A stretch of 64,000 bases of DNA from Escherichia coli (GTDB taxonomy: Bacteria; Pseudomonadota; Gammaproteobacteria; Enterobacterales; Enterobacteriaceae): the NCBI RefSeq assembly GCF_044647545.1, contig NZ_CP172818.1, one strand, 5' to 3'. Positions 16,246-43,037 of this stretch are shown here, in pieces. The position numbers and the translations under genes are program-made. Within the stretch, counting starts at the first letter, position 1. Each line of letters opens with the position of its first letter. A model generated the notes under the pieces. It made no database searches. It was given only the letters and a program-made list of their open reading frames with translations, and was not told the DNA's origin.

Positions 16246-16341
16246 TGCTGGGTAATATGAATGTTTTTATGGCCGTACTGGGAATAATTTTATTTTCTGG
16301 GTTTCTGGCCGCGTATTTCAGCCACAAATGGGATGACTAAT
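16246..16341 (+). CDS. mgtS: small membrane protein MgtS (YneM), 31 aa
   Basis: atgctgggtaatatgaatgtt... encodes MLGNMNVFMAVLGIILFSGFLAAYFSHKWDD; terminator hairpin follows. Confidence 0.8.
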
Positions 16342-16367
16342 GAACGGAGATAATCCCTCACCTAACC

Positions 16368-16407
16368 GGCCCCTTGTTACAGTTGTGTACAAGGGGCCTG
16401 ATTTTTA
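16368..16407 (+). terminator. rho-independent terminator of mgtS
   Basis: ggccccttgt...acaaggggcc stem followed by tgattttta. Confidence 0.6.
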
Positions 16408-16415
16408 TGACGGCG

Positions 16416-16513
16416 AAAAAAAACCGCCAGTAAACCGGCGGTGAATGCTTGCATGGATAGATTTGTGTTTTGCTTTTACGCTAACAGGCATTTTCCTGCA
16501 CTGATAACGGATC
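16416..16513 (-). ncRNA. mgrR: MgrR sRNA (PhoP-dependent, Hfq-binding); coordinates approximate
   Basis: Minus-strand PhoP box, candidate -10 TACTGT about 22 bp downstream, and a terminator (ccgccggtttactggcgg + T8) about 98 nt from the predicted start. Confidence 0.6.
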
Positions 16514-16546
16514 GTTGACACAGTAGCATCAGTTTTCTCAATGAAT

Positions 16547-16564
16547 GTTAAACGGAGCTTAAAC
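16547..16564 (-). promoter_or_regulatory. PhoP box (GTTTAA-N5-GTTTAA direct repeat) upstream of mgrR
   Basis: Minus strand reads gtttaagctccgtttaac. Confidence 0.6.
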
Positions 16565-27436: not shown

Positions 27437-28011
27437 CTACGGCAGTGCTGGCCATTCAATATCCTGTGCAGTTGACGTATCAACACGGTTCAGCAATACC
27501 CGATACTTTTTCCATGCTTCCAGCAACGGGGTTTCTTCCTCCGTTGCAATTTCCAGATCTGCAGCATCCTGAAGCGGCGCAATATGCTCACTGGCTACCT
27601 GCATCAGGTTGTTTTTTTTTCTTCCGCTTCCCGTATCCGAAACAGTTTTTCTGCTTCCTCATCATTCACCCAGGATACGCCGTCCCACTTCTGATACTCC
27701 CCTGCTGGCGACAACCAGGTGACATTCTCTGGTAGCGGTCCGAGTTCAGAAATAAACAATGCGTCCCCCGACGCCACGTCATAGACCGTTTTACCACGAT
27801 GGTCTTCAACAATATTCCACGATTCATTTTCACTGTTAAAAACTGCCACAAAGCCAGCAGGAATTTCCGGTGGGGCGATATCTGTAGAATTAGCTGGCAG
27901 CCCTGTATGAGGTGGAATATATGCGTCACCTTCACCAATAAACTCATTAGTTCCGGCCAGCAGGTTATAAATTTTTACGGTACGTGATTGTTCACTCATT
28001 CTGAATGCCAT
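27437..28011 (-). pseudogene. tfaQ: tail fibre assembly protein TfaQ, frameshifted at a 9-nt homopolymer (27612-27620)
   Basis: N-terminal frame stops after ...EAEEKKTT at 27604; the C-terminal part ([22 protein letters not shown]...DIEWPALP*) continues in another frame to a stop at 27437-27439. Confidence 0.7.
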
Positions 28012-31308: not shown

Positions 31309-31579
31309 AATGTTACCGTAATATGTGAGTATCCATCGACTAGACACTAAGCAAAAAAGCTCCCGAAGGAGCCTTCATTTTCACTTTCTTAAATCTAACG
31401 ACAGATGGCTAACATTTAAGTATTGTGAAATATTATCAAATGTAATCATCATTGATTTACAAAAGATACATTTTGCCCCGAAAGGATTTCTGTCAGAAAC
31501 ATCAAAAGATGATGTTCTATACTGAGAACCATGGCAACACGGGCATCTAAAGTGAATATGGTTTGTAATATTTTCTACC

Positions 31580-31792
31580 TCAAAGTGCCACTACATGAAC
31601 AGCTGCAGGGCCTTTAGGTCCGTTCTCAATACCAAATTCGACTTCCTGATTCTCAGTTAACGTTTTGAAATCGTTGCTCTGAATAGCTGAGAAATGCACA
31701 AACACATCTTTGCTACCATCTTTCGGCGTGATGAAACCAAAACCTTTTTCAGGGTTAAACCATTTCACTAAACCAGTCATTTTGTTAGACAT
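31580..31792 (-). CDS. cspI: cold-shock protein CspI, 70 aa
   Basis: [38 protein letters not shown]...; long AT-rich upstream leader. Confidence 0.9.
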
Positions 31793-32156
31793 CATTATTA
31801 CCTTTTGAAGAAGTTAGCCCTTGGGCAGAATGGTCCGAAAAAAAAATATCAGAGAGAAAAACCAACAAGGAAATCTCAAGAGGTACAAATAATAAAATTA
31901 TAACAATGACTGCTTCAGATAATTTTGTAACAAACCAGAACACCATTAACGCATGATTAACCAACCATAGCAAGGATTACTTTTGTAAAGAAAAACACAC
32001 GAATGAAACAATAGCTTTATTTATTAATAAAACGTGTCATTCTGTCTAATGACCTTTTATCTTACCCTTAAGATTTCAAGGATTTTGACTCATGGAAGAG
32101 TCCTTTTTATTTAAATTTCACATTCAGCGCTAAAAATAATCCGATTTAATATTAAT

Positions 32157-34103: not shown

Positions 34104-34466
34104 TTGATTTTATTAGTAACAAGTATTTTTTATATTTTAATAATATATTTAAAGCAGATAATAAAAAACCCGCCTGAGCGGGTTTGAGATTGTGGTGCTT
34201 TTTGTGGGAGTCATCCACTTACGCACTTTGTTTTGCCATGCCAGCAGTTAGCTTCTGCTGTAAAACTATTCATGCAGCAAACCTGCACTTCACCACAATG
34301 GTTAGCATACTTTTCCTGATTAAGATTTTGCCAAATATGCTAGCCATTGTTTCATGTATTGGACCTCCTTACTTTTTATTAAAGAGATCCAATATTCACT
34401 ACTCTGTCCGTATCTCTACTCAGGCATCAGCCTTCTTCGTTATCGTATACAGACGAGCGATGAATT

Positions 34467-34682
34467 TTAATCAGTAATGATGACATTTGCTGCTGCAGGA
34501 CCTTTAGCACCACTCTCTATAGAGAAGGTAACCTTTTGACCTTCAAATAAGGTTCGATAATTATCATTCTGAATCGCAGAAAAATGCACAAACACATCTT
34601 TACTACCATCAACAGGAGAAATAAAGCCGAAACCTTTATCAGCGTTAAACCATTTTACTAAACCAGTCATTTTATTTGACAT
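34467..34682 (-). CDS. cspB: cold-shock protein CspB, 71 aa
   Basis: [38 protein letters not shown]... Confidence 0.9.
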
Positions 34683-34982
34683 TCTACATTCCTTAACTTG
34701 AGCCTTTCGGCATAAATGGTTTGCATAACAGAAACGACTTCGTACTTAATTGGAGAGACTCAAAGAAGGAATAAGTGAATAACACCTGAAATGAGAACTG
34801 CTTTAGTAAACTACTTCGTATATCGTCTGTTCTTCAAACCGACGCAATCATTAACGCATAGTTGAACATATGAAGCAATGTTTATTTTAGACATCCAGCC
34901 ATCTTCAACCCCATCAAAAAACTATAGCTTTCTTCAGGAACGTGTGTATAGTGCGCCAAGTTATCAGTATTAAGGAATTTTT

Positions 34983-35195: not shown

Positions 35196-35616
35196 GCTAT
35201 ATTAAAGCTTTAATTTCAGGCCCCATCGGATCACACATGGAGAGTTTTTATGAATAACCCCGTCTGTCTTGATGACTGGTTGATTGGCTTTAAAAGCTTA
35301 TGCTGTACTTTGGCCGTAATAGCTCTGCTAATAATATAATAAGCAGACTCATTGTGTTTAGGGACATTGTACTGGAAGAAAACATTTTAAACATCAGGCA
35401 AATAACCAAGTCACCAGCTAAATAATAAGTTAACAGACATGAGTCCCGGGATGAGATTCAACATTACCATTGCCCCATTTAAAGCACAAAACCCGCTCAT
35501 CAGCGGGTTTTCTACTTTTTCTTAACGTCGGGTATACAAAGCCCATCGTTAGGAGAATCCTAACCAAATTTTTTGAAAAATGCAAGAATCATGTCGCCAT
35601 CTTCGGCGAAAATCAT

Positions 35617-36369
35617 TTATCTCGTCACTTTTCTTAATTGCGCCTCAGCATATGCTTCTTCCTGCCAGCACTTTGTCACCAGTTTATCAATGACATCTGC
35701 ATATCCTTTGTACCACTGATAATCCGTCAGGTCTGGTACCAGCTTCTGGACATGATGCCGCGCCAGTGTGGTTGGTAAACGGCTAAACCGATTTCCATTG
35801 CAACGCCCACAAATCTTATAAACAGGCGTGCCATGAAGCCGGGTCCTTTTTTCATCCAGGACAATACCTTTACCCTTACACCCTCTGCACGCTGTGCTGA
35901 CTTCTCCCTTACCATGACAATGCTGACATAGTTCCTTCACCCACTCTTCCTTGATAACAGATTCCCCGCTTCTGGAGTGTTTCACCACTTCGCGCAATAC
36001 ATTATGAAATCCAGTACCAGCACAATGCTCACAGCGAGCCTTACTTGCCGCAGACCTGGAATAATCAGCAAAGGCAAAATTCACAAGGTAAGGGATGATC
36101 TGTAACCGGGTTTCTTCACTCAATTTGTTCAATGTCGGGTTATCCAGTGCCATCGCGTAATTGAGCAGACCTTCAATCGCAAATTGAGGATCCTGAACAC
36201 CAACTTTTGCCAGGAATAAGGCAAACCCAAGCGGTGCTTTCGACTGCACCATCCCCTGCGCAGCCATCACATCCGTAATCGTTAAACCACCTGAGCCTGT
36301 CGCCGGTGCGTCATCGCTCAATTTTGGAGATTTTGGGGAGTAATATTTTGGTAAGGCTTCAAGGTTCAT
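35617..36369 (-). CDS. quuQ: late-gene antiterminator Q homologue QuuQ, 250 aa
   Basis: 250-aa ORF with Cys-rich zinc-binding region upstream of the lysis cassette. Confidence 0.85.
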   Translation of the reverse strand: MNLEALPKYYSPKSPKLSDDAPATGSGGLTITDVMAAQGMVQSKAPLGFALFLAKVGVQDPQFAIEGLLNYAMALDNPTLNKLSEETRLQIIPYLVNFAFADYSRSAASKARCEHCAGTGFHNVLREVVKHSRSGESVIKEEWVKELCQHCHGKGEVSTACRGCKGKGIVLDEKRTRLHGTPVYKICGRCNGNRFSRLPTTLARHHVQKLVPDLTDYQWYKGYADVIDKLVTKCWQEEAYAEAQLRKVTR

Positions 36370-36564
36370 GCTCGTTCTCCACTTACGCCAGTACGCCTAT
36401 TGCCAGCGCACGATCGATAAAACGAAATATCAGCTCCAGCTGGGAACCATACATCTCTTCAAATGCCACGGTATCCGCATGCAGCTCGTCGTGATGCTTT
36501 CTGCACAAAGGCAACACGAAGAGGTCATGCGCTTTTGTACCCATTCCACCCTGACCGTGGCCTA

Positions 36565-37470
36565 TCAGGTGATGGGGATCATCGGCAGGCTTACCACAAC
36601 ACGCACACGGCTGTGTCTTAACCCAGCGCGTGTACTTCTCATTAACCCAGCGGCGACGTTTAGGCGCTTCATAAAAGATTCCGGCGACTCTGGATCAACG
36701 GCAATGCTGACCACCGTCTTTTCCTGTGGTGGGTTCTGTTGCTGGTGGGCGTGAGGCAGCGGCGCAAGATTTTTTGTGCGCTGTTTCAGTATGCTGGTGG
36801 CGGTCTGCTCTCCCGGTACGATGTCGCTTTCGCGGTACACCGAGCAGATTTTTTCCGCTGGTAATCCCAGCGAACGACGCGATACAGCCTCAGGTAGTGC
36901 ATCCACCACCTGATTGCAGACCGCCCACCAGGATAATTCAGCCAAAGATAATTCCCGCTCCTGCGTACCGCTTATTGCGTGACGGATGACGTCAATCACC
37001 CATGCTGTCAGATTTTGTTGAGCAAGCAGCTCCAGTGATTCCGATGTCTGGTCACGCAGTTGGTTGTCGCAGTGCCAACACAACACCATTGCGCCGGTAC
37101 CATAACGGTGAATGACTGTTTCAGTGTGATGGTAATCTCCATTAGGCCACTGGCAGGATGTAACATGACGTAATAGCCAGTCAGACAATGCGCCAACGCC
37201 GCCAGCAGCACGAATCACCCGTTCGTTACTAAAAAACGGCAGCAATGTTTTGTCTTCCGCCAGCGGCTGGCCAACGGCAGGAACGACTCCGGATGGCAGA
37301 TTACGCATGCTTTTTGGTTCCGGTTCCACCAGCACTCGAGGATTATGAAATATCTGTATGGATTCACGGCCCGGCTTAAGGACCACCAGCCCAAGCTCAG
37401 GCACCAGAACAGGTCTAAGTAATACCCGCACGTTACCTCCAGATCCGTTGCTGGAAAGTGCGGGACGCAC
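36565..37470 (-). CDS. ydfU: DUF968-type prophage protein YdfU (301-aa frame, GTG start per ORF track)
   Basis: Long minus-strand ORF; its 5' end overlaps the adjacent 92-aa ORF by 38 bp in a different frame. Confidence 0.7.
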   Translation of the reverse strand: MRPALSSNGSGGNVRVLLRPVLVPELGLVVLKPGRESIQIFHNPRVLVEPEPKSMRNLPSGVVPAVGQPLAEDKTLLPFFSNERVIRAAGGVGALSDWLLRHVTSCQWPNGDYHHTETVIHRYGTGAMVLCWHCDNQLRDQTSESLELLAQQNLTAWVIDVIRHAISGTQERELSLAELSWWAVCNQVVDALPEAVSRRSLGLPAEKICSVYRESDIVPGEQTATSILKQRTKNLAPLPHAHQQQNPPQEKTVVSIAVDPESPESFMKRLNVAAGLMRSTRAGLRHSRVRVVVSLPMIPIT

Positions 37471-37711
37471 GTGGTGGGCGTTCGGAGTAAGGCAATCTGA
37501 CTGAGATTATCCAGTGACGGTAGTCGAGACTAAGGGCTTTCTTAACCTCGTATCCGCGCCTGCGGTAACACTGAATTATCCATTCAGCCTGCTCTTCAGT
37601 GCATGGAGGGTGTTGGAACCATTCAGACTTGAATGCGTGAGAATACCGCTCGTGCGTGCAGGCAAGAACGGGCGAATTATCAGAATTGTAATATTTTACG
37701 TTGCGTGCCAT
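37433..37711 (-). CDS. 92-aa Cys-containing prophage ORF upstream of ydfU (separate gene or frameshifted N-terminus of ydfU)
   Basis: MARNVKYYNSDNSPVLACTHERYSHAFKSEWFQHPPCTEEQAEWIIQCYRRRGYEVKK... Confidence 0.45.
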   Translation of the reverse strand: MARNVKYYNSDNSPVLACTHERYSHAFKSEWFQHPPCTEEQAEWIIQCYRRRGYEVKKALSLDYRHWIISVRLPYSERPPRASRTFQQRIWR

Positions 37712-37777
37712 CGGTTTTCTCCGGTGGCACGGTGTTACTCAGCGGGAGTTCAGCCCCGCGCAAGATTGTAGATGAGT

Positions 37778-38029
37778 TTATTCTTCTGCAAAAGCTGAAA
37801 AGCCTGCTTTTATTCCGATCTCTTTCAGTGCCTGTAATGAAGTGACAAACTCACCTTCGCGCAAGATAAATCCGTCTGTCACTCGACCATCCACAAAATT
37901 AATTAACGCAGCCCCATTCTTTCGCAAACACATAATGCGGTAATGACTAACAAGATTTCCATTTTCAACGCACACCGCATAGAGGCCATCTTCACAAAAA
38001 ATTTTACGCAGTTCTTCGATGTTCATCAT
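37778..38029 (-). CDS. rem: Rem, Qin prophage protein, 83 aa
   Basis: 83-aa ORF MMNIEELRKIFCEDGLYAVCVENGNLVSHYRIMCL... Confidence 0.75.
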   Translation of the reverse strand: MMNIEELRKIFCEDGLYAVCVENGNLVSHYRIMCLRKNGAALINFVDGRVTDGFILREGEFVTSLQALKEIGIKAGFSAFAEE

Positions 38030-38245
38030 CAGAATCCTTCCGGATAATTAGCTCTCCCCTTTAAGGGACCATCCCTCTTATCCCTGCGCGCTACTTAAGT
38101 ATTTTTGATTCTATTCCGGCACCGTCCAGAACTTCAAACGCGTTGAAAATAAAAACAAAAACCCGCCGAAGCGGGTTAAGTGCGGGTGCGTTGAGGATGC
38201 CTGCCACATCAGAGGTGGCGAGGGATTTCTCCCTCGCCGGGTCTC

Positions 38246-38401
38246 TTACTCCTCAGGTTCGTAAGCTGTGAAGACAGCGACCTCCGTCTGCCCGGTTCGG
38301 ATTCGTACCTCGCAGAGGTCTTTCCTCGTTACCAGTGCCGTCACTATGACGGTTAAACAGATGACGATCAGGGCGATTAACATCGCCTTTTGCTGCTTCA
38401 T
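38246..38401 (-). CDS. hokD: Hok-family membrane toxin HokD (RelF), 51 aa
   Basis: Minus strand encodes MKQQKAMLIALIVICLTVIVTALVTRKDLCEVRIRTGQTEVAVFTAYEPEE. Confidence 0.85.
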   Translation of the reverse strand: MKQQKAMLIALIVICLTVIVTALVTRKDLCEVRIRTGQTEVAVFTAYEPEE

Positions 38402-38472
38402 AGCCTGCTTCTCCTGTCAACGCAAAGCAGAAGTGTCACCTTCGGTGCGAAACAGAGATGTCATGCTTTGGT

Positions 38473-38760
38473 TCAGAGAATGCGTTTGACCGCCTCGCTA
38501 TATACTTCCGAGCGTTCTCTTTTCCCAACAGAAATCACGAAAACGACAACTTTCTCGTCTATAACCTGGTATACAAGGCGATAGCCTGAAGACCGGAGCT
38601 TAATCTTGTAACAATCAGGCATACCACGGAGCTTGTTTGCTTCAATCCGGGGTGACTCAAGTACTTCAACCAGCTTCTTTTTCAACTGTTCACGTACCGT
38701 CGAGCCCAGCTTTCGCCATTCCTTTAGTGCCCGCTCGTCAAAATCCAGAAAATACGCCAT
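38473..38760 (-). CDS. relE: mRNA interferase toxin RelE, 95 aa
   Basis: MAYFLDFDERALKEWRKLGSTVREQLKKKLVEVLESPRIEANKLRG... Confidence 0.95.
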   Translation of the reverse strand: MAYFLDFDERALKEWRKLGSTVREQLKKKLVEVLESPRIEANKLRGMPDCYKIKLRSSGYRLVYQVIDEKVVVFVISVGKRERSEVYSEAVKRIL

Positions 38761-38999
38761 CAGAGTTCATCCAGCGTCACACGTACTGGCTTAGGATTAC
38801 GAAGCCGTTCTTTCACTATCTCCACAAGTTCAGCATCTTCATCACTCAGGAGTGTCTGTTTGAACGGCAAGCGTTCATTGTCAGCGATATACTCGAGCAT
38901 GAGACGAAGCGCTTCAGAAGGAGTTACACCCATTTTTTCAAGCGCGGCGTAAGAACGCGCTTTAAGTTCATCGTCAATACGCAGGTTAATGCTACCCAT
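38760..38999 (-). CDS. relB: antitoxin RelB, 79 aa
   Basis: MGSINLRIDDELKARSYAALEKMGVTPSEALRLML...; stop overlaps relE start. Confidence 0.95.
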   Translation of the reverse strand: MGSINLRIDDELKARSYAALEKMGVTPSEALRLMLEYIADNERLPFKQTLLSDEDAELVEIVKERLRNPKPVRVTLDEL

Positions 39000-39023
39000 G
39001 TCTTACACCTCTTGTAATTACAA

Positions 39024-39329
39024 ATGTCATTACAAGTATCGCACTACAACATGCTTAGGGCAAGTCACGAAGGAAGTCAGAAAGTAGTCGTAAGAACGGT
39101 GATCACTGTCCGCTTTGTGCCAGGAGCAGCCATTGCTAAGTCCATCCTGTATTGTGCAGGTCAGCTCGTTTTTAAAGAGTCCGGCCATCATCTTACTGGT
39201 ACAGACACCATATACTTTGTGACGGTCAGGCTACATATGCACAACTCAACTTATTCATCTATTTTTTGCTTTAGCATGTCAGTGTTGCTTTCTCGTCGGC
39301 GGGTGAGCGGTGACCTGACCTGTCGATAA
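39024..39329 (+). CDS. ydfV: Qin prophage protein YdfV, 101 aa
   Basis: 101-aa ORF; weak coding signal. Confidence 0.6.
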   Translation: MSLQVSHYNMLRASHEGSQKVVVRTVITVRFVPGAAIAKSILYCAGQLVFKESGHHLTGTDTIYFVTVRLHMHNSTYSSIFCFSMSVLLSRRRVSGDLTCR

Positions 39330-39531
39330 AGGAACGTAACACGTTTTATGCAACACCCGCATGCGGCAGAAAATTATTGCCGAACGTTTACCCCTGTCAA
39401 CAAGCTTTACTTTCTGAGGCGCGCCAGCCCGCGAGGAAAACAATCTGAACATCAAACAATTAATGACACAAGAAATACGATTAAAGATTTTTTTGTGCAT
39501 GCCGATAGTGCTTTTTTAAAAGGAGAAATCT

Positions 39532-39864
39532 ATGTCTGTCACAATTCAGGGAAATACCTCAACCGTTATTTCAAACAACTCCGCCCCGGAAGGAACATCA
39601 GAAATAGCCAAAATCACAAGACAAATTCAGGTGCTGACTGAAAAGCTTGGGAAAATCTCATCGGAAGAGGGGATGACGACACAGCAGAAAAAAGAAATGG
39701 CTGCATTGGTACAGAAGCAAATTGAAAGCCTCTGGGCTCAACTGGAGCAGTTGTTAAGGCAGCAGGCAGAGAAAAAGAATGAAGACGCGACAGTTCAGCC
39801 TGATAAAAAAGAAGAGAAAAAAGACGATACAAATACCGCTGGCACCATTGATATTTACGTCTAA
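39532..39864 (+). CDS. flxA: FlxA (flagellar-regulon sigma-28-dependent protein), 110 aa
   Basis: 110-aa Lys/Glu-rich ORF; GGAG RBS; terminator follows. Confidence 0.85.
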   Translation: MSVTIQGNTSTVISNNSAPEGTSEIAKITRQIQVLTEKLGKISSEEGMTTQQKKEMAALVQKQIESLWAQLEQLLRQQAEKKNEDATVQPDKKEEKKDDTNTAGTIDIYV

Positions 39865-39877
39865 GTGACAGCCGTAT

Positions 39878-39902
39878 TGTGGCCCTCATCGGGCCACTTT
39901 TC
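39878..39902 (+). terminator. rho-independent terminator after flxA
   Basis: gtggccctcatcgggccac hairpin followed by ttttc. Confidence 0.6.
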
Positions 39903-40248
39903 GCCATCAGCCTTTTCTTTAAAGACATATTATCTTTGTATCATTTCTGATAGTTAACATTACAAGATATAAGTAATGGACGCACTCCCAATTAGTCTAT
40001 TTAAATCGCCACGAGTTTAACTGACAACCCATGATCAATTATGAATTGCAACTATTTCTGTAGTCACTTTTGTGGGGACAGTCCACAAAACTGCCAACTT
40101 CCGCTTCTTGCTCTTAGCGGACATTAGCATAGGCTATTTACCATAACGCCTCATTACGCGCACCGCCCAGACTGACTCAGCGCGTTTCTGGCATATCCCC
40201 GGTAAAACAAGTAACAAACCACCCGAAAATGAACACCAGAAACGCGAC

Positions 40249-40476
40249 TTAAGAATCTACCCTATGAATGGATATGCACTCAACCGAATCGATCTTGGTT
40301 TCAATCTTTTTTATCGGGATCAGGCTTCTTTTTAGGTAACTTCGGGGGCTTAACTTGCTGATGACTTTGCGTTCGGCGCGTAAGCCAGGGATGGTCAGCT
40401 TTAGGTTTAACATAGTATTTTGAGCGTAAATCAATACGGGCATTATCCACTCGTTCATGGACACTCTTTTCATCAT
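40249..40476 (-). pseudogene. ydfW: integrase-like fragment YdfW (IntK remnant)
   Basis: 75-aa ORF with weak similarity to the C-terminal end of tyrosine recombinases; far too short to be functional. Confidence 0.55.
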
Positions 40477-40763
40477 CCAGTGGTAGCCTCCATAATTGCA
40501 GGCACTAGCGCCGTGAACTTTTCACGCTTATCCCTAGTGTCGATAGCCTTCCAGCGTTCGAATATCTTCACTCGATTAACGCCAAGCGCTCGCTGATCAA
40601 CCGCGCCACCTTCATCTGTGACACGCTGAACATCGATGTTCGGGCGCTCTTTCAAAGCCCAGAATGCTTCAGTGATTAATATCGTCGCCTGCTCCTGTGT
40701 CATTCCTGGTCGACATATCCAGGCATCCAGAGCCTCACGAGCCTGTTCAGGAGTGATTTTCAT
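40473..40763 (-). CDS. ydfX: Qin prophage protein YdfX, 96 aa
   Basis: 96-aa ORF overlapping dicC stop. Confidence 0.7.
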   Translation of the reverse strand: MKITPEQAREALDAWICRPGMTQEQATILITEAFWALKERPNIDVQRVTDEGGAVDQRALGVNRVKIFERWKAIDTRDKREKFTALVPAIMEATTG

Positions 40764-40974
40764 TGTTCAACCGCCCCGCCCGCTTCGTCTTACGATATTC
40801 GTCATAAACCTTGGGATCATACAGAAGCTCGCCGCCAGATGCCTCCTGTAGACGCATCGCGCGACCTTCAGGAACCAGCTCTTGCCATTGAGAAACAGCA
40901 GATGGGTCAACGCCAGCAGCTTTCGCTACTTTGGCTTTCGTACCGTAAAAATTAATTACGTCTGATTTAAACAT
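40747..40974 (-). CDS. dicC: Cro-like repressor DicC
   Basis: Small ORF divergent from dicA; C-terminal ...LQEASGGELLYDPKVYDEYRKTKRAGRLNNENHS. Confidence 0.8.
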   Translation of the reverse strand: MFKSDVINFYGTKAKVAKAAGVDPSAVSQWQELVPEGRAMRLQEASGGELLYDPKVYDEYRKTKRAGRLNNENHS

Positions 40975-42621: not shown

Positions 42622-42679
42622 TTTCTGGTGACGTTTGGCGGTATCAGTTTTACTCCGTGACTGCTCTGCCGCCCTTTTT
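42622..42679 (+). ncRNA. dicF: DicF sRNA (53 nt) plus its terminator U-tail
   Basis: tttctggtgacgtttggcggtatcagttttactccgtgactgctctgccgccc followed by ttttt. Confidence 0.8.
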
Positions 42680-42848
42680 AAAGTGAATTTTGTGATGCGG
42701 TGAATGCGGCTGAGCGCACGCGGAACAGTTAAAACCAAAAACAGTGTTATGGGTGGATTCTCTGTATCCGGCGTTAATTGTTAACTGGTTAACGTCACCT
42801 GGAGGCACCAGGCACCGCATCACAAAATTCATTGTTGAGGACGCGATA

Positions 42849-43037
42849 ATGGAAACGTTATTACCAAACGTTAATACGTCTGAAGGTTGTTTTGAAATTG
42901 GTGTCACTATCAGTAACCCTGTATTTACTGAAGATGCCATTAACAAGAGAAAACACGAACGGAAGCTATTAAATAAAATATGCATTCTTTCAATGTTGGC
43001 CCGTTTACGTCCGATACAAAAAGGATGCTGGCAATGA
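42849..43037 (+). CDS. dicB: cell-division inhibitor DicB, 62 aa
   Basis: METLLPNVNTSEGCFEIGVTISNPVFTEDAINKRK... Confidence 0.9.
   Translation: METLLPNVNTSEGCFEIGVTISNPVFTEDAINKRKHERKLLNKICILSMLARLRPIQKGCWQ

Follow-up and report, generated by a model that had tools for sequence, protein, structure and literature searches.

Do the relB, relE and hokD genes, which follow one another on a single strand of a prophage of Escherichia coli, constitute two toxin–antitoxin systems or only one? The genes lie in a stretch of 64,000 nucleotides from contig NZ_CP172818.1 (assembly GCF_044647545.1), which is called the window throughout, and hokD, also named relF, begins 71 nt downstream of relE on the minus strand that carries all three. 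An initial annotation of the window presented them as back-to-back toxin–antitoxin loci. Half of this description stood: relBE is a complete, standard type II toxin–antitoxin system and hence one such locus, but hokD is not another, being without a sok gene, a Sok target, a mok frame, a tac element and a promoter of its own. The gene identities, their coordinates and their same-strand order were exact when checked by open reading frame (ORF) analysis and Pfam, and the locus is the published relBEF operon of a Qin-type lambdoid prophage, an arrangement that was already known. We hold with considerable confidence that it is a relBEF operon with an orphan hokD, and that this state would have been created by the insertion of an element of the ISEsa1 family of insertion sequences (IS) and by a later deletion.

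Parts of a hok/mok/sok locus at hokD

The presence or absence of the sok, mok and tac parts was determined by sequence analysis. The Rfam model RF01794, which covers the hok leader together with the overlapping sok gene, gave no match between positions 37500 and 39600 at E ≤ 10, none between 39300 and 44000 at E ≤ 5, and over the 64-kb window as a whole no match that reached its gathering score. As positive controls the model scored 115.3 bits directly upstream of relBE-free hokD in E. coli Z226-7 and E. coli B, and 88.9 bits at the R1-type plasmid hok. Two IncF loci (L007 and L008) were unsuitable as intact hok controls, since ISKpn8 lies within their leaders, and pAPEC-O2-R was used instead. 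Alignment to intact hokD loci showed that relBE-linked and relBE-free loci are essentially identical from the Shine–Dalgarno sequence to a point past the terminator (from the Shine–Dalgarno sequence onward the hokD of the window is 97-100% identical to intact hokD-type loci) and unrelated upstream, with a homology break 14-15 nt upstream of the hokD ATG. The same break was found in every partial E. coli genome match and in 77 of 78 phage records. It had been stated in the initial annotation that the presence of a Sok RNA cannot be judged from sequence alone; it can, as the sok and target region is replaced from this break onward. Because the Sok target region is not on the relBEF messenger RNA (mRNA), no Sok RNA can pair with it.

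The remaining parts of the type I architecture gave a similar picture. In intact hokD loci the in-frame MokD extension is 70 aa long; in the window the corresponding frame is closed by a TGA (Table 1), and an out-of-frame ORF at 38253-38420 had no DUF5431 match. In intact hokD mRNA nucleotides 1-12, the tac element, pair with the fold-back inhibition (fbi) region at a predicted probability of ~1.0, and a tac element is absent throughout the window transcript. The promoter scanner, at a threshold of 9/12, found no promoter-like site on either strand of the relE-hokD interval. The search for a Sok-like antisense promoter and a mok/hok fold-back structure at 38390-38470, which the initial annotation had proposed, returned neither, and the fbi element was the only fold-back part found. 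What hokD keeps is its Shine–Dalgarno sequence, its ORF, the fbi element and the terminator. These it shares with canonical hok/mok/sok loci, such as that of plasmid R1, hokW/mokW/sokW of phage 933W and the intact hokD-type loci of 4032 E. coli genomes, from which it differs in having no hok promoter, tac, mok start, Sok target or sok gene and promoter, and in depending on the foreign relB promoter instead. With a Hok ORF present and four defining features of a hok/sok locus missing (the sok gene with its Sok target, the mok frame, tac and an own promoter), hokD is an orphan toxin ORF and not a type I locus. It cannot act as a type I addiction module because it is without an unstable antitoxin.

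These results bear on the proposal that relBE and hokD, the latter with a cryptic Sok-like RNA, are two working toxin–antitoxin systems that form a double addiction cassette retaining the prophage. The relE and hokD toxin ORFs are both intact, and the statement of the initial annotation that neither is disrupted was borne out by comparison with E. coli K-12 BW25113: the RelB, RelE and HokD proteins are identical to their K-12 counterparts, no disrupting mutation was found in the three coding sequences, and the nucleotide differences number zero in relB, zero in relE and one, synonymous, in hokD. However, no sok or leader match appeared even at permissive thresholds, where the controls gave 89-115 bits; no antisense promoter was found, and the whole Sok-target region is replaced by IS and relBE sequence. 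Tested chromosomal hok loci were moreover without post-segregational killing, as far as can be said from a citation in bioRxiv 10.1101/2025.08.07.668861, where this is reported for hokA, hokB and hokC, and the K-12 hok loci are regarded as inactive (PMC1635323, PMC12214031). We consider a double cassette of this kind extremely improbable. The truncated state of hokD, like the relBEF arrangement, has already been published: hokD was described as inactivated by rearrangement (PMC12214031), and Ramisetty and co-workers reported that relBE integration shortened an ancestral ORF of ~70 codons at hokD to 51 codons (PMC6379469).

Copies of the element at hok start sites

The sequence that replaces the hok leader was found, as part of a longer unit, in phage PhiR42_1 (L010, from ECOR13), in the chromosome of E. 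coli KSC1031 (L001), on an Enterobacter IncF plasmid (L005) and in a metagenome-assembled contig (L026); its repeats, its duplications and the filled and empty sites were read from alignments of these sequences with intact hokD loci (L002 and L003). In PhiR42_1 the hok leader and the sok gene (RF01794, 104.1 bits) stand 3.3 kb upstream of hokD, and the order is displaced leader and sok, transposase gene, flxA, ydfV, relB, relE, hokD. The insertion measures 3274 bp, starts with TGTTAACACCAAGCTGTAATGTCCCC and finishes with GGTGACACTTCTGCTTTGCGTTGACA. Its ends are imperfect inverted repeats, the left terminal inverted repeat (IRL) and the right one (IRR) agreeing at 22 of 30 positions, which was the best value among the internal positions scanned; the IRL reads TGTTAACACCAAGCTGTAATGTCCCCTTTG in all four full elements, and the tips are TGT...ACA. 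The 15-mer GGAGAAGCAGGCTAT, which runs from the hokD Shine–Dalgarno sequence through the 'AT' of the ATG, was found on both sides of the element in the phage, the KSC1031 chromosome and the metagenome contig, and once in the empty sites L002 and L003; L009 is another empty site. To judge from these sequences, PhiR42_1 and the intact hokD loci are a classical filled-site/empty-site pair. KSC1031, the closest chromosomal relative of the window, has an element of 3301 bp with the same 15-bp duplication and with the displaced leader directly beyond the IS (109.5 bits).

Insertions were also detected in other types of hok. On the Enterobacter IncF plasmid the element lies in a plasmid-type hok, with a 14-bp duplication, GGAGAAGAAGGCCA, on both sides. 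Since its flanks differ from those of the hokD copies right up to the element tips, this insertion must be an independent event at the equivalent position. In Citrobacter portucalensis it is the plasmid-hok site in reverse complement that adjoins the right end, and the leader (94.7 bits) reads away, which indicates either that the element inserted the other way round or that an inversion followed. A further insertion at the hok start site was seen in a third variant of hok, that of Klebsiella L006. Counted separately, there are at least four or five hits at hok sites; they cover three hok sequence types, and both orientations occur among them. That relBE is transposon cargo and that its carrier inserted recurrently at hok start sites is structurally well supported and, on these comparisons, highly probable. 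The initial annotation took the adjacency of the genes for a dense addiction cassette; it would instead be the scar of an IS insertion into hokD and not an evolved pairing.

A different account of the same junction, in a model attributed to Ramisetty and Santhosh, is that relBE reached hokD by recombination as a minimal module of promoter and ORFs and that the adjacent IS is coincidental. A relBE module of ~710 bp does recur with varied left neighbours and with no duplication of its own, and relBE has been described as horizontally transferred without a terminator (PMC5120126). Yet the direct repeats of 15 bp or 14 bp precisely flank the whole 3.3-kb unit, which has inverted repeats at its tips, and such flanks occur in two hok backgrounds with matching empty sites. 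Directly behind relE lies the sequence that forms the inverted-repeat pair with the transposase-proximal end, and the same end accompanies relBE copies whose relE is only 72-95% identical. It is also unlikely that the direct repeats are mere conserved hok sequence, the empty sites having one copy. Arrival of relBE as a minimal module, with the IS beside it by coincidence, is in our judgement very unlikely. In a separate observation, the ~710-bp module was considered as a mini-transposon in its own right and rejected, as it has no flanking duplication and has a hairpin, not an inverted repeat, at its left boundary.

Three further observations concern hok leaders and plasmids. In genomes with a complete element (L001:12616-12787, L010:2202-2373 and 687 E. 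coli genomes) the orphan leader keeps sok and the mok start, and this leader beyond the IS may still make a Sok RNA without a target in cis. A lone right end of ~62 nt, 84% identical, stands before a plasmid-type hok on plasmids or contigs of Klebsiella and Escherichia sp. (L011:701-762 and L019), at precisely the position of the other insertions and with neither relBE nor a transposase near it, and looks like the scar of an older hit by a diverged relative. Finally, ~700 PLSDB plasmids (including L005, L006 and L028), of IncF type and from Enterobacter, Klebsiella and Citrobacter, carry the block of relBE plus IRR, often with ydfV and flxA, at an identity of at least 99% and usually fused to the plasmid's own hok. 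The 'chromosomal' relBE of K-12 thus appears to circulate on conjugative plasmids.

The truncated element of the window

The window carries the right part of the element (Table 1), and the truncation was delimited by comparison with the full copies. The remnant is colinear at 99-99.7% with the copies on phage L010, plasmid L005 and chromosome L001, and homology to all three ends at 40485, inside the transposase gene, of which the last ~61 codons, or ~185 nt (40301-40485), are left. The ORF annotated as ydfW matches residues 398-446 of the L005 transposase at 48 of its 49 residues. The junction 40485/40486 joins this transposase remnant to a fragment of a YdaT-family gene (ydfX); it recurs in K-12 and was counted in 359 complete E. 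coli genomes. An intact left junction with the displaced hok leader was found in 687 E. coli genomes out of the 1161 with the relBE-hokD junction. The passenger ydfV had no Pfam or NCBIfam family match and lies within the element on the phage, plasmid and chromosome copies.

According to the history that we propose, an ISEsa1-family (IS1202/ISNCY) element of ~3.3 kb, with the order IRL, transposase, flxA, ydfV, relB, relE, IRR, would have inserted exactly at the hokD translation-initiation region. The insertion would have duplicated the 15 bp of the target, so that a Shine–Dalgarno sequence and an ATG were regenerated downstream of the element. In the lineage of the window and in K-12, the left 1.2 kb of the element would then have been lost by a later deletion that also took sok and the displaced hok leader, and the ydfW remnant would have stayed behind.

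Table 1. Features of the relBEF locus and of the element remnant in the window
Feature	Position	Strand	Description
relB	38760-38999	-	79 aa; antitoxin and autorepressor; Pfam RelB, E = 1e-32 over residues 1-79
relE	38473-38760	-	95 aa; ribosome-dependent mRNA interferase toxin; Pfam ParE_toxin, E = 2e-13
hokD (relF)	38246-38401	-	51 aa; Hok-family membrane toxin ORF; Pfam HOK_GEF, E = 1e-23
relBEF promoter	39035-39063	-	-35 TTGCCC at 39058-39063; 17-nt spacer; -10 GATACT at 39035-39040; direct sequence reading
relO-like operator	39011-39036		12-bp perfect palindrome TTGTAATTACAA within a 12-nt inverted-repeat pair; repeat search
Intrinsic terminator of the hok mRNA, hence of the relBEF transcript	38150-38177	-	Stem at 38160-38177, then a U-tract; terminator scan
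In-frame TGA	38417-38419	-	18 nt upstream of the hokD ATG; closes the frame that encodes the Mok extension in intact loci
fbi element CCUCAACGCACCC	38184-38196	-	In the 3' untranslated region (UTR) of hokD; orphaned, without a tac partner
Element remnant	38415-40485	-	Right 2071 bp of the 3.3-kb element: transposase 3' tip, flxA, ydfV, relB, relE, IRR
IRR	38415-38444	-	Ends ...GCGTTGACA; last 30 nt of the relE-hokD 'spacer'
Right copy of the target-site duplication	38400-38414	-	15 bp, GGAGAAGCAGGCTAT; spans the hokD Shine–Dalgarno sequence and the first two ATG bases
'ydfW' ORF	40301-40450	-	Last 49 codons of an ISNCY/ISEsa1-family transposase; remnant
ydfV	39024-39329	+	Passenger ORF of unknown function, divergent from relB; RefSeq annotation
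flxA	39532-39864	+	Passenger ORF annotated as FlxA-like; between the transposase gene and relBE

The relBEF transcript and the state of hokD

The relBE pair shows the organization of a type II system, with the antitoxin gene first, a toxin of the RelE/ParE fold, a compact overlapping operon and a palindromic operator. The overlap of the relB stop with the relE start noted in the initial annotation was seen as an ATGA at 38758-38762, in which the relB TGA overlaps the relE ATG. The ParE_toxin family of Pfam is that of the RelE/ParE superfamily; RelE residues 1-95 match the RelE chains of PDB entries 4V7K/4FXE (E = 1e-57), and the catalytic residues K52, K54, R61, R81 and Y87 are all present. 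For the mechanism we rely on the literature on the identical K-12 sequence, where neutralisation of the toxin by the unstable antitoxin is known for proteins identical to those of the window (PMC3598666, PMC7167474).

The relB promoter was missed by the scanner, since it scores 8/12 and the cut-off was 9/12; its placement agrees with the mapped transcription start (PMC3598666, +28 just upstream of the relB ORF). The relO-like operator overlaps the -10 box and the transcription start, and its palindrome would be the expected RelB operator. The terminator is identical in intact hokD loci. Published northern analysis with relB, relE and relF probes detected a single relBEF transcript that depends on the relB promoter, deletion of which abolishes the relF signal, and the relF part of the relBEF mRNA accumulates after toxin-induced cleavage (PMC3598666). 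Co-transcription of a downstream gene has been described for horizontally moving toxin–antitoxin modules without terminators (PMC6379469, PMC5120126). The K-12 Qin relBEF locus has the same promoter and operator, 71-nt relE-hokD gap, terminator and neighbours (ydfV, flxA, ydfW, rem, ydfU and dicF), and the cassette of the window, which comes from a different strain, differs from it in one synonymous hokD base and one base of the 3' UTR.

Put together with the insertion proposed above, these data suggest how the operon would function. A sigma-70 promoter with a palindromic RelB operator would drive one relB-relE-hokD mRNA that ends at the hok terminator near 38160; unstable RelB would neutralise RelE, and RelB and RelE would jointly repress the promoter. 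Because the right end of the element has no terminator, relBE transcription would read into hokD, and hokD would be transcribed only by this read-through from the relB promoter.

How hokD fares on this transcript is less certain. We infer that HokD is weakly translated, given the lost mok coupling; the predicted accessibility of its ribosome-binding site (RBS) is 0.36, beside 0.38 for relB and 0.42 for relE. One alternative goes further and takes hokD for a dead remnant that is never translated and decays neutrally. The mok coupling, the own promoter and all control elements are indeed lost, and the literature calls hokD inactivated (PMC12214031). The ORF is nevertheless undamaged, with a conservation of at least 97% over thousands of genomes, the insertion regenerated the Shine–Dalgarno sequence and the ATG, the transcript is abundant, and the coding sequence is toxic when expressed. 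The conservation of hokD is weak evidence either way, because the block has spread recently and there was little time for decay. We regard the dead-remnant alternative as possible and rather doubtful.

A second alternative holds that hokD was recruited as a working second toxin of relBEF, placed under the transcriptional control of RelB and RelE and, after transcription, under a new fold-back that pairs the IS end with fbi, and that cleavage or 3' processing in stress frees a translatable fragment. Once toxin-induced cleavage has occurred, relF is the part of the mRNA that accumulates most (PMC3598666); the reading frame of hokD is conserved, and editing of hokD mRNA has been reported (PMC12214031). 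The IS end UGCGUUGA (38417-38424) is an 8-nt perfect complement of the fbi core (38186-38193) on the minus strand, a length reached by 50 of 20000 shuffles (0.25%), and in the isolated relF fragment the resulting helix is predicted with a probability of 0.56 and is also part of the minimum-free-energy fold. In the full-length relBEF mRNA, however, the predicted probability of this helix is 0, and the fusions to plasmid-type hok, which have a different 3' UTR, do not preserve the complementarity. It was noticed post hoc, and no phenotype has been reported for chromosomal hokD. For the first two of these reasons, zero probability in the full mRNA and lack of conservation, the IS-end/fbi fold-back was rejected as a replacement for tac and retained solely as a part of the recruited-toxin proposal; the complementarity of UGCGUUGA to fbi is probably due to chance. 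Recruitment of hokD as a working toxin is, all told, improbable.

Two observations on the hokD sequence stand apart from this question. The Tyr47 codon of HokD is TAC followed by G (TACG, 38260-38263 on the minus strand), which is the context of low-level TadA A-to-I editing (Tyr to Cys) of hokD mRNA (PMC12214031). The hokD 3' UTR at 38156-38237 (minus strand) gave an Rfam match to isrK, a Salmonella small RNA, of 25.7 bits against a gathering score of 50; this reading was rejected, as the match probably reflects a generic hairpin-plus-terminator shape and is obtained equally at intact hokD loci.

Family and boundaries of the element

The transposase of the full copies L005, L010 and L001 is 446 aa long, scores 465 bits against NCBIfam transpos_ISNCY_2 (cut-off 250) and is labelled 'IS1202-like element ISEsa1 family' in RefSeq. 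In the IS1202 family the elements end in TGT...ACA, and duplications of 15-17 bp are known from one subgroup (PMC10132070, bioRxiv 2022.12.17.520857). The 3.3-kb unit has a transposase of this family, inverted repeats with TGT...ACA tips and a duplication with an empty site. It shares the ISNCY-type DDE transposase, the imperfect repeats, the tips and an inner repeat with the ISEsa1/IS1202 (ISNCY) family, which includes transporter ISs with passengers (e.g. ISKpn21), and in its long duplication of 14-15 bp it resembles the ISTde1 subgroup. A survey of the family gives ISEsa1 itself a length of 1609 bp and 15/22 repeats, and lists neither a detectable duplication nor a known target (PMC10132070), whereas the unit described here measures 3.3 kb, carries relBE, ydfV and flxA as cargo, makes 14-15-bp duplications and has landed repeatedly at hok starts. 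Between copies that differ in their cargo, homology ends at element position ~1592-1594. Because they diverge there, the 1609-bp boundary would be the start of a variable cargo slot, and the true right end would lie after relE.

Copies away from hok were also found. The same right end with relBE stands before unrelated DNA in Enterobacter, Kluyvera, Leclercia, Cedecea, Mangrovibacter and Edwardsiella, and the relE genes of these copies show 72-100% nucleotide and 66-100% protein identity. In Mangrovibacter phragmitis (L021:8165-10132) a unit of 1938 bp shares both the IRL and the IRR and is flanked by a 15-bp duplication whose two copies agree at 13 of 15 positions, at a site unrelated to hok. 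No transposase was found in this unit, which carries NTP_transf_6 and DUF1737 ORFs. It was therefore rejected as a cargo-less IS, and it appears to be a non-autonomous relative with a different cargo. The occurrence of near-identical copies at different sites and on different replicons is indirect evidence for mobility. A more specific proposal, which we put forward tentatively, is that E. coli relBE may be carried as a passenger by a transporter IS of the ISEsa1 family that has its right end just behind relE and prefers hok translation-initiation regions, where it makes 14-15-bp duplications.

The 57-nt relE-hokD spacer was also considered as a remnant of an R1-type hok leader, with which it shares GCTTTGCG at a similar position. 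This was rejected because the spacer is the IS terminal repeat, which is kept beside relBE where no hok is present.

Prophage setting and further RNA elements

The link to Qin made in the initial annotation agreed with the neighbouring genes, which are rem, ydfU and the Q antiterminator on one side and ydfV, flxA, ydfW, dicC/dicA and DicF on the other. The 1-kb cassette, annotated as relB/relE/hokD in RefSeq, was detected in 1161 of 5426 complete E. coli genomes when at least 80% coverage of the query was required. Comparison of 35500-40900 with K-12 revealed a mosaic boundary just downstream of the hokD terminator: the block 38235-40500 (flxA, ydfV, relBE and hokD) differs from K-12 at 2 positions, and the phage genes at 35500-38000 (rem, ydfU and Q antiterminator) diverge by 4-10%. 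Because there are 2 differences inside the block versus 4-10% in the adjacent phage genes, its near-identity to K-12 would fit a recently exchanged module.

Further RNA elements were found in the window. DicF lies at 42623-42674 on the plus strand (76.7 bits) and is directly followed by a sub-threshold STnc100-like match (42672-42881, plus strand, 40.1 bits vs 47). On the minus strand there are two cspA-type thermoregulator leaders (34451-34843 and 31534-31951), STnc560 (16334-16547, 281.9 bits) and IS009 (27471-27668, 204.7 bits).

Discussion

The origin of the relBEF operon by insertion of an ISEsa1-family element and later deletion must be weighed against several points that speak the other way. 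The window itself has one end of the element and one copy of the duplication, and the insertion is reconstructed from its relatives; in the same manner, that the 3.3-kb unit transposes is something that we infer by comparing sequences. Many genomes match only the ~710-bp module of relBE plus IRR, with no left end found in the flanks examined. The listing of ISEsa1 at 1609 bp and without a duplication conflicts with the 3.3-kb boundaries unless the right end was misplaced at the start of the cargo. As for hokD, the predicted accessibility of its RBS resembles that of relB and relE and so does not point to weak translation, and the gene is toxic on overexpression and its ORF is conserved.

The origin of relBE as transposon cargo may be new: no mention of it was found in the literature consulted, which did not extend to Pedersen & Gerdes 1999 and Ramisetty & Santhosh 2016. 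Some Tn3-family transposons carry type II toxin–antitoxin modules as an integral part. The element described here is like them in having a type II pair inside a transposable element, which plausibly stabilises the element or the host replicon, and differs in its transposase family, its size and its ends, and in that relBE directly adjoins one of the terminal repeats and reads outward, into the target gene.

As first stated, the finding of relBE next to hokD was a rediscovery of a textbook operon, and the transposon origin is a modest lead. Its consequences differ in reach. The hokD gene of the window, and equally that of K-12, ought not to be labelled or tallied as a type I system; it is a solitary toxin ORF, expressed solely as the tail of relBEF. 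This matters for toxin–antitoxin censuses and for relBE deletion strains, which also alter hokD expression. The transposon origin would offer a concrete mechanism for the spread of relBE among phages, chromosomes and IncF plasmids, and would account both for the missing terminator of relBE and for the odd ydfW and ydfX fragments of K-12. It further suggests that ISEsa1 has been mis-delimited; if this is true, the published boundaries, duplication and target need revising. And if the preference for hok starts is real, reflecting targeting and not survivorship, one addiction module would be disabling and capturing another: each hit would cut a type I toxin off from Sok and mok control, and in one orientation it would place that toxin under a type II operon.

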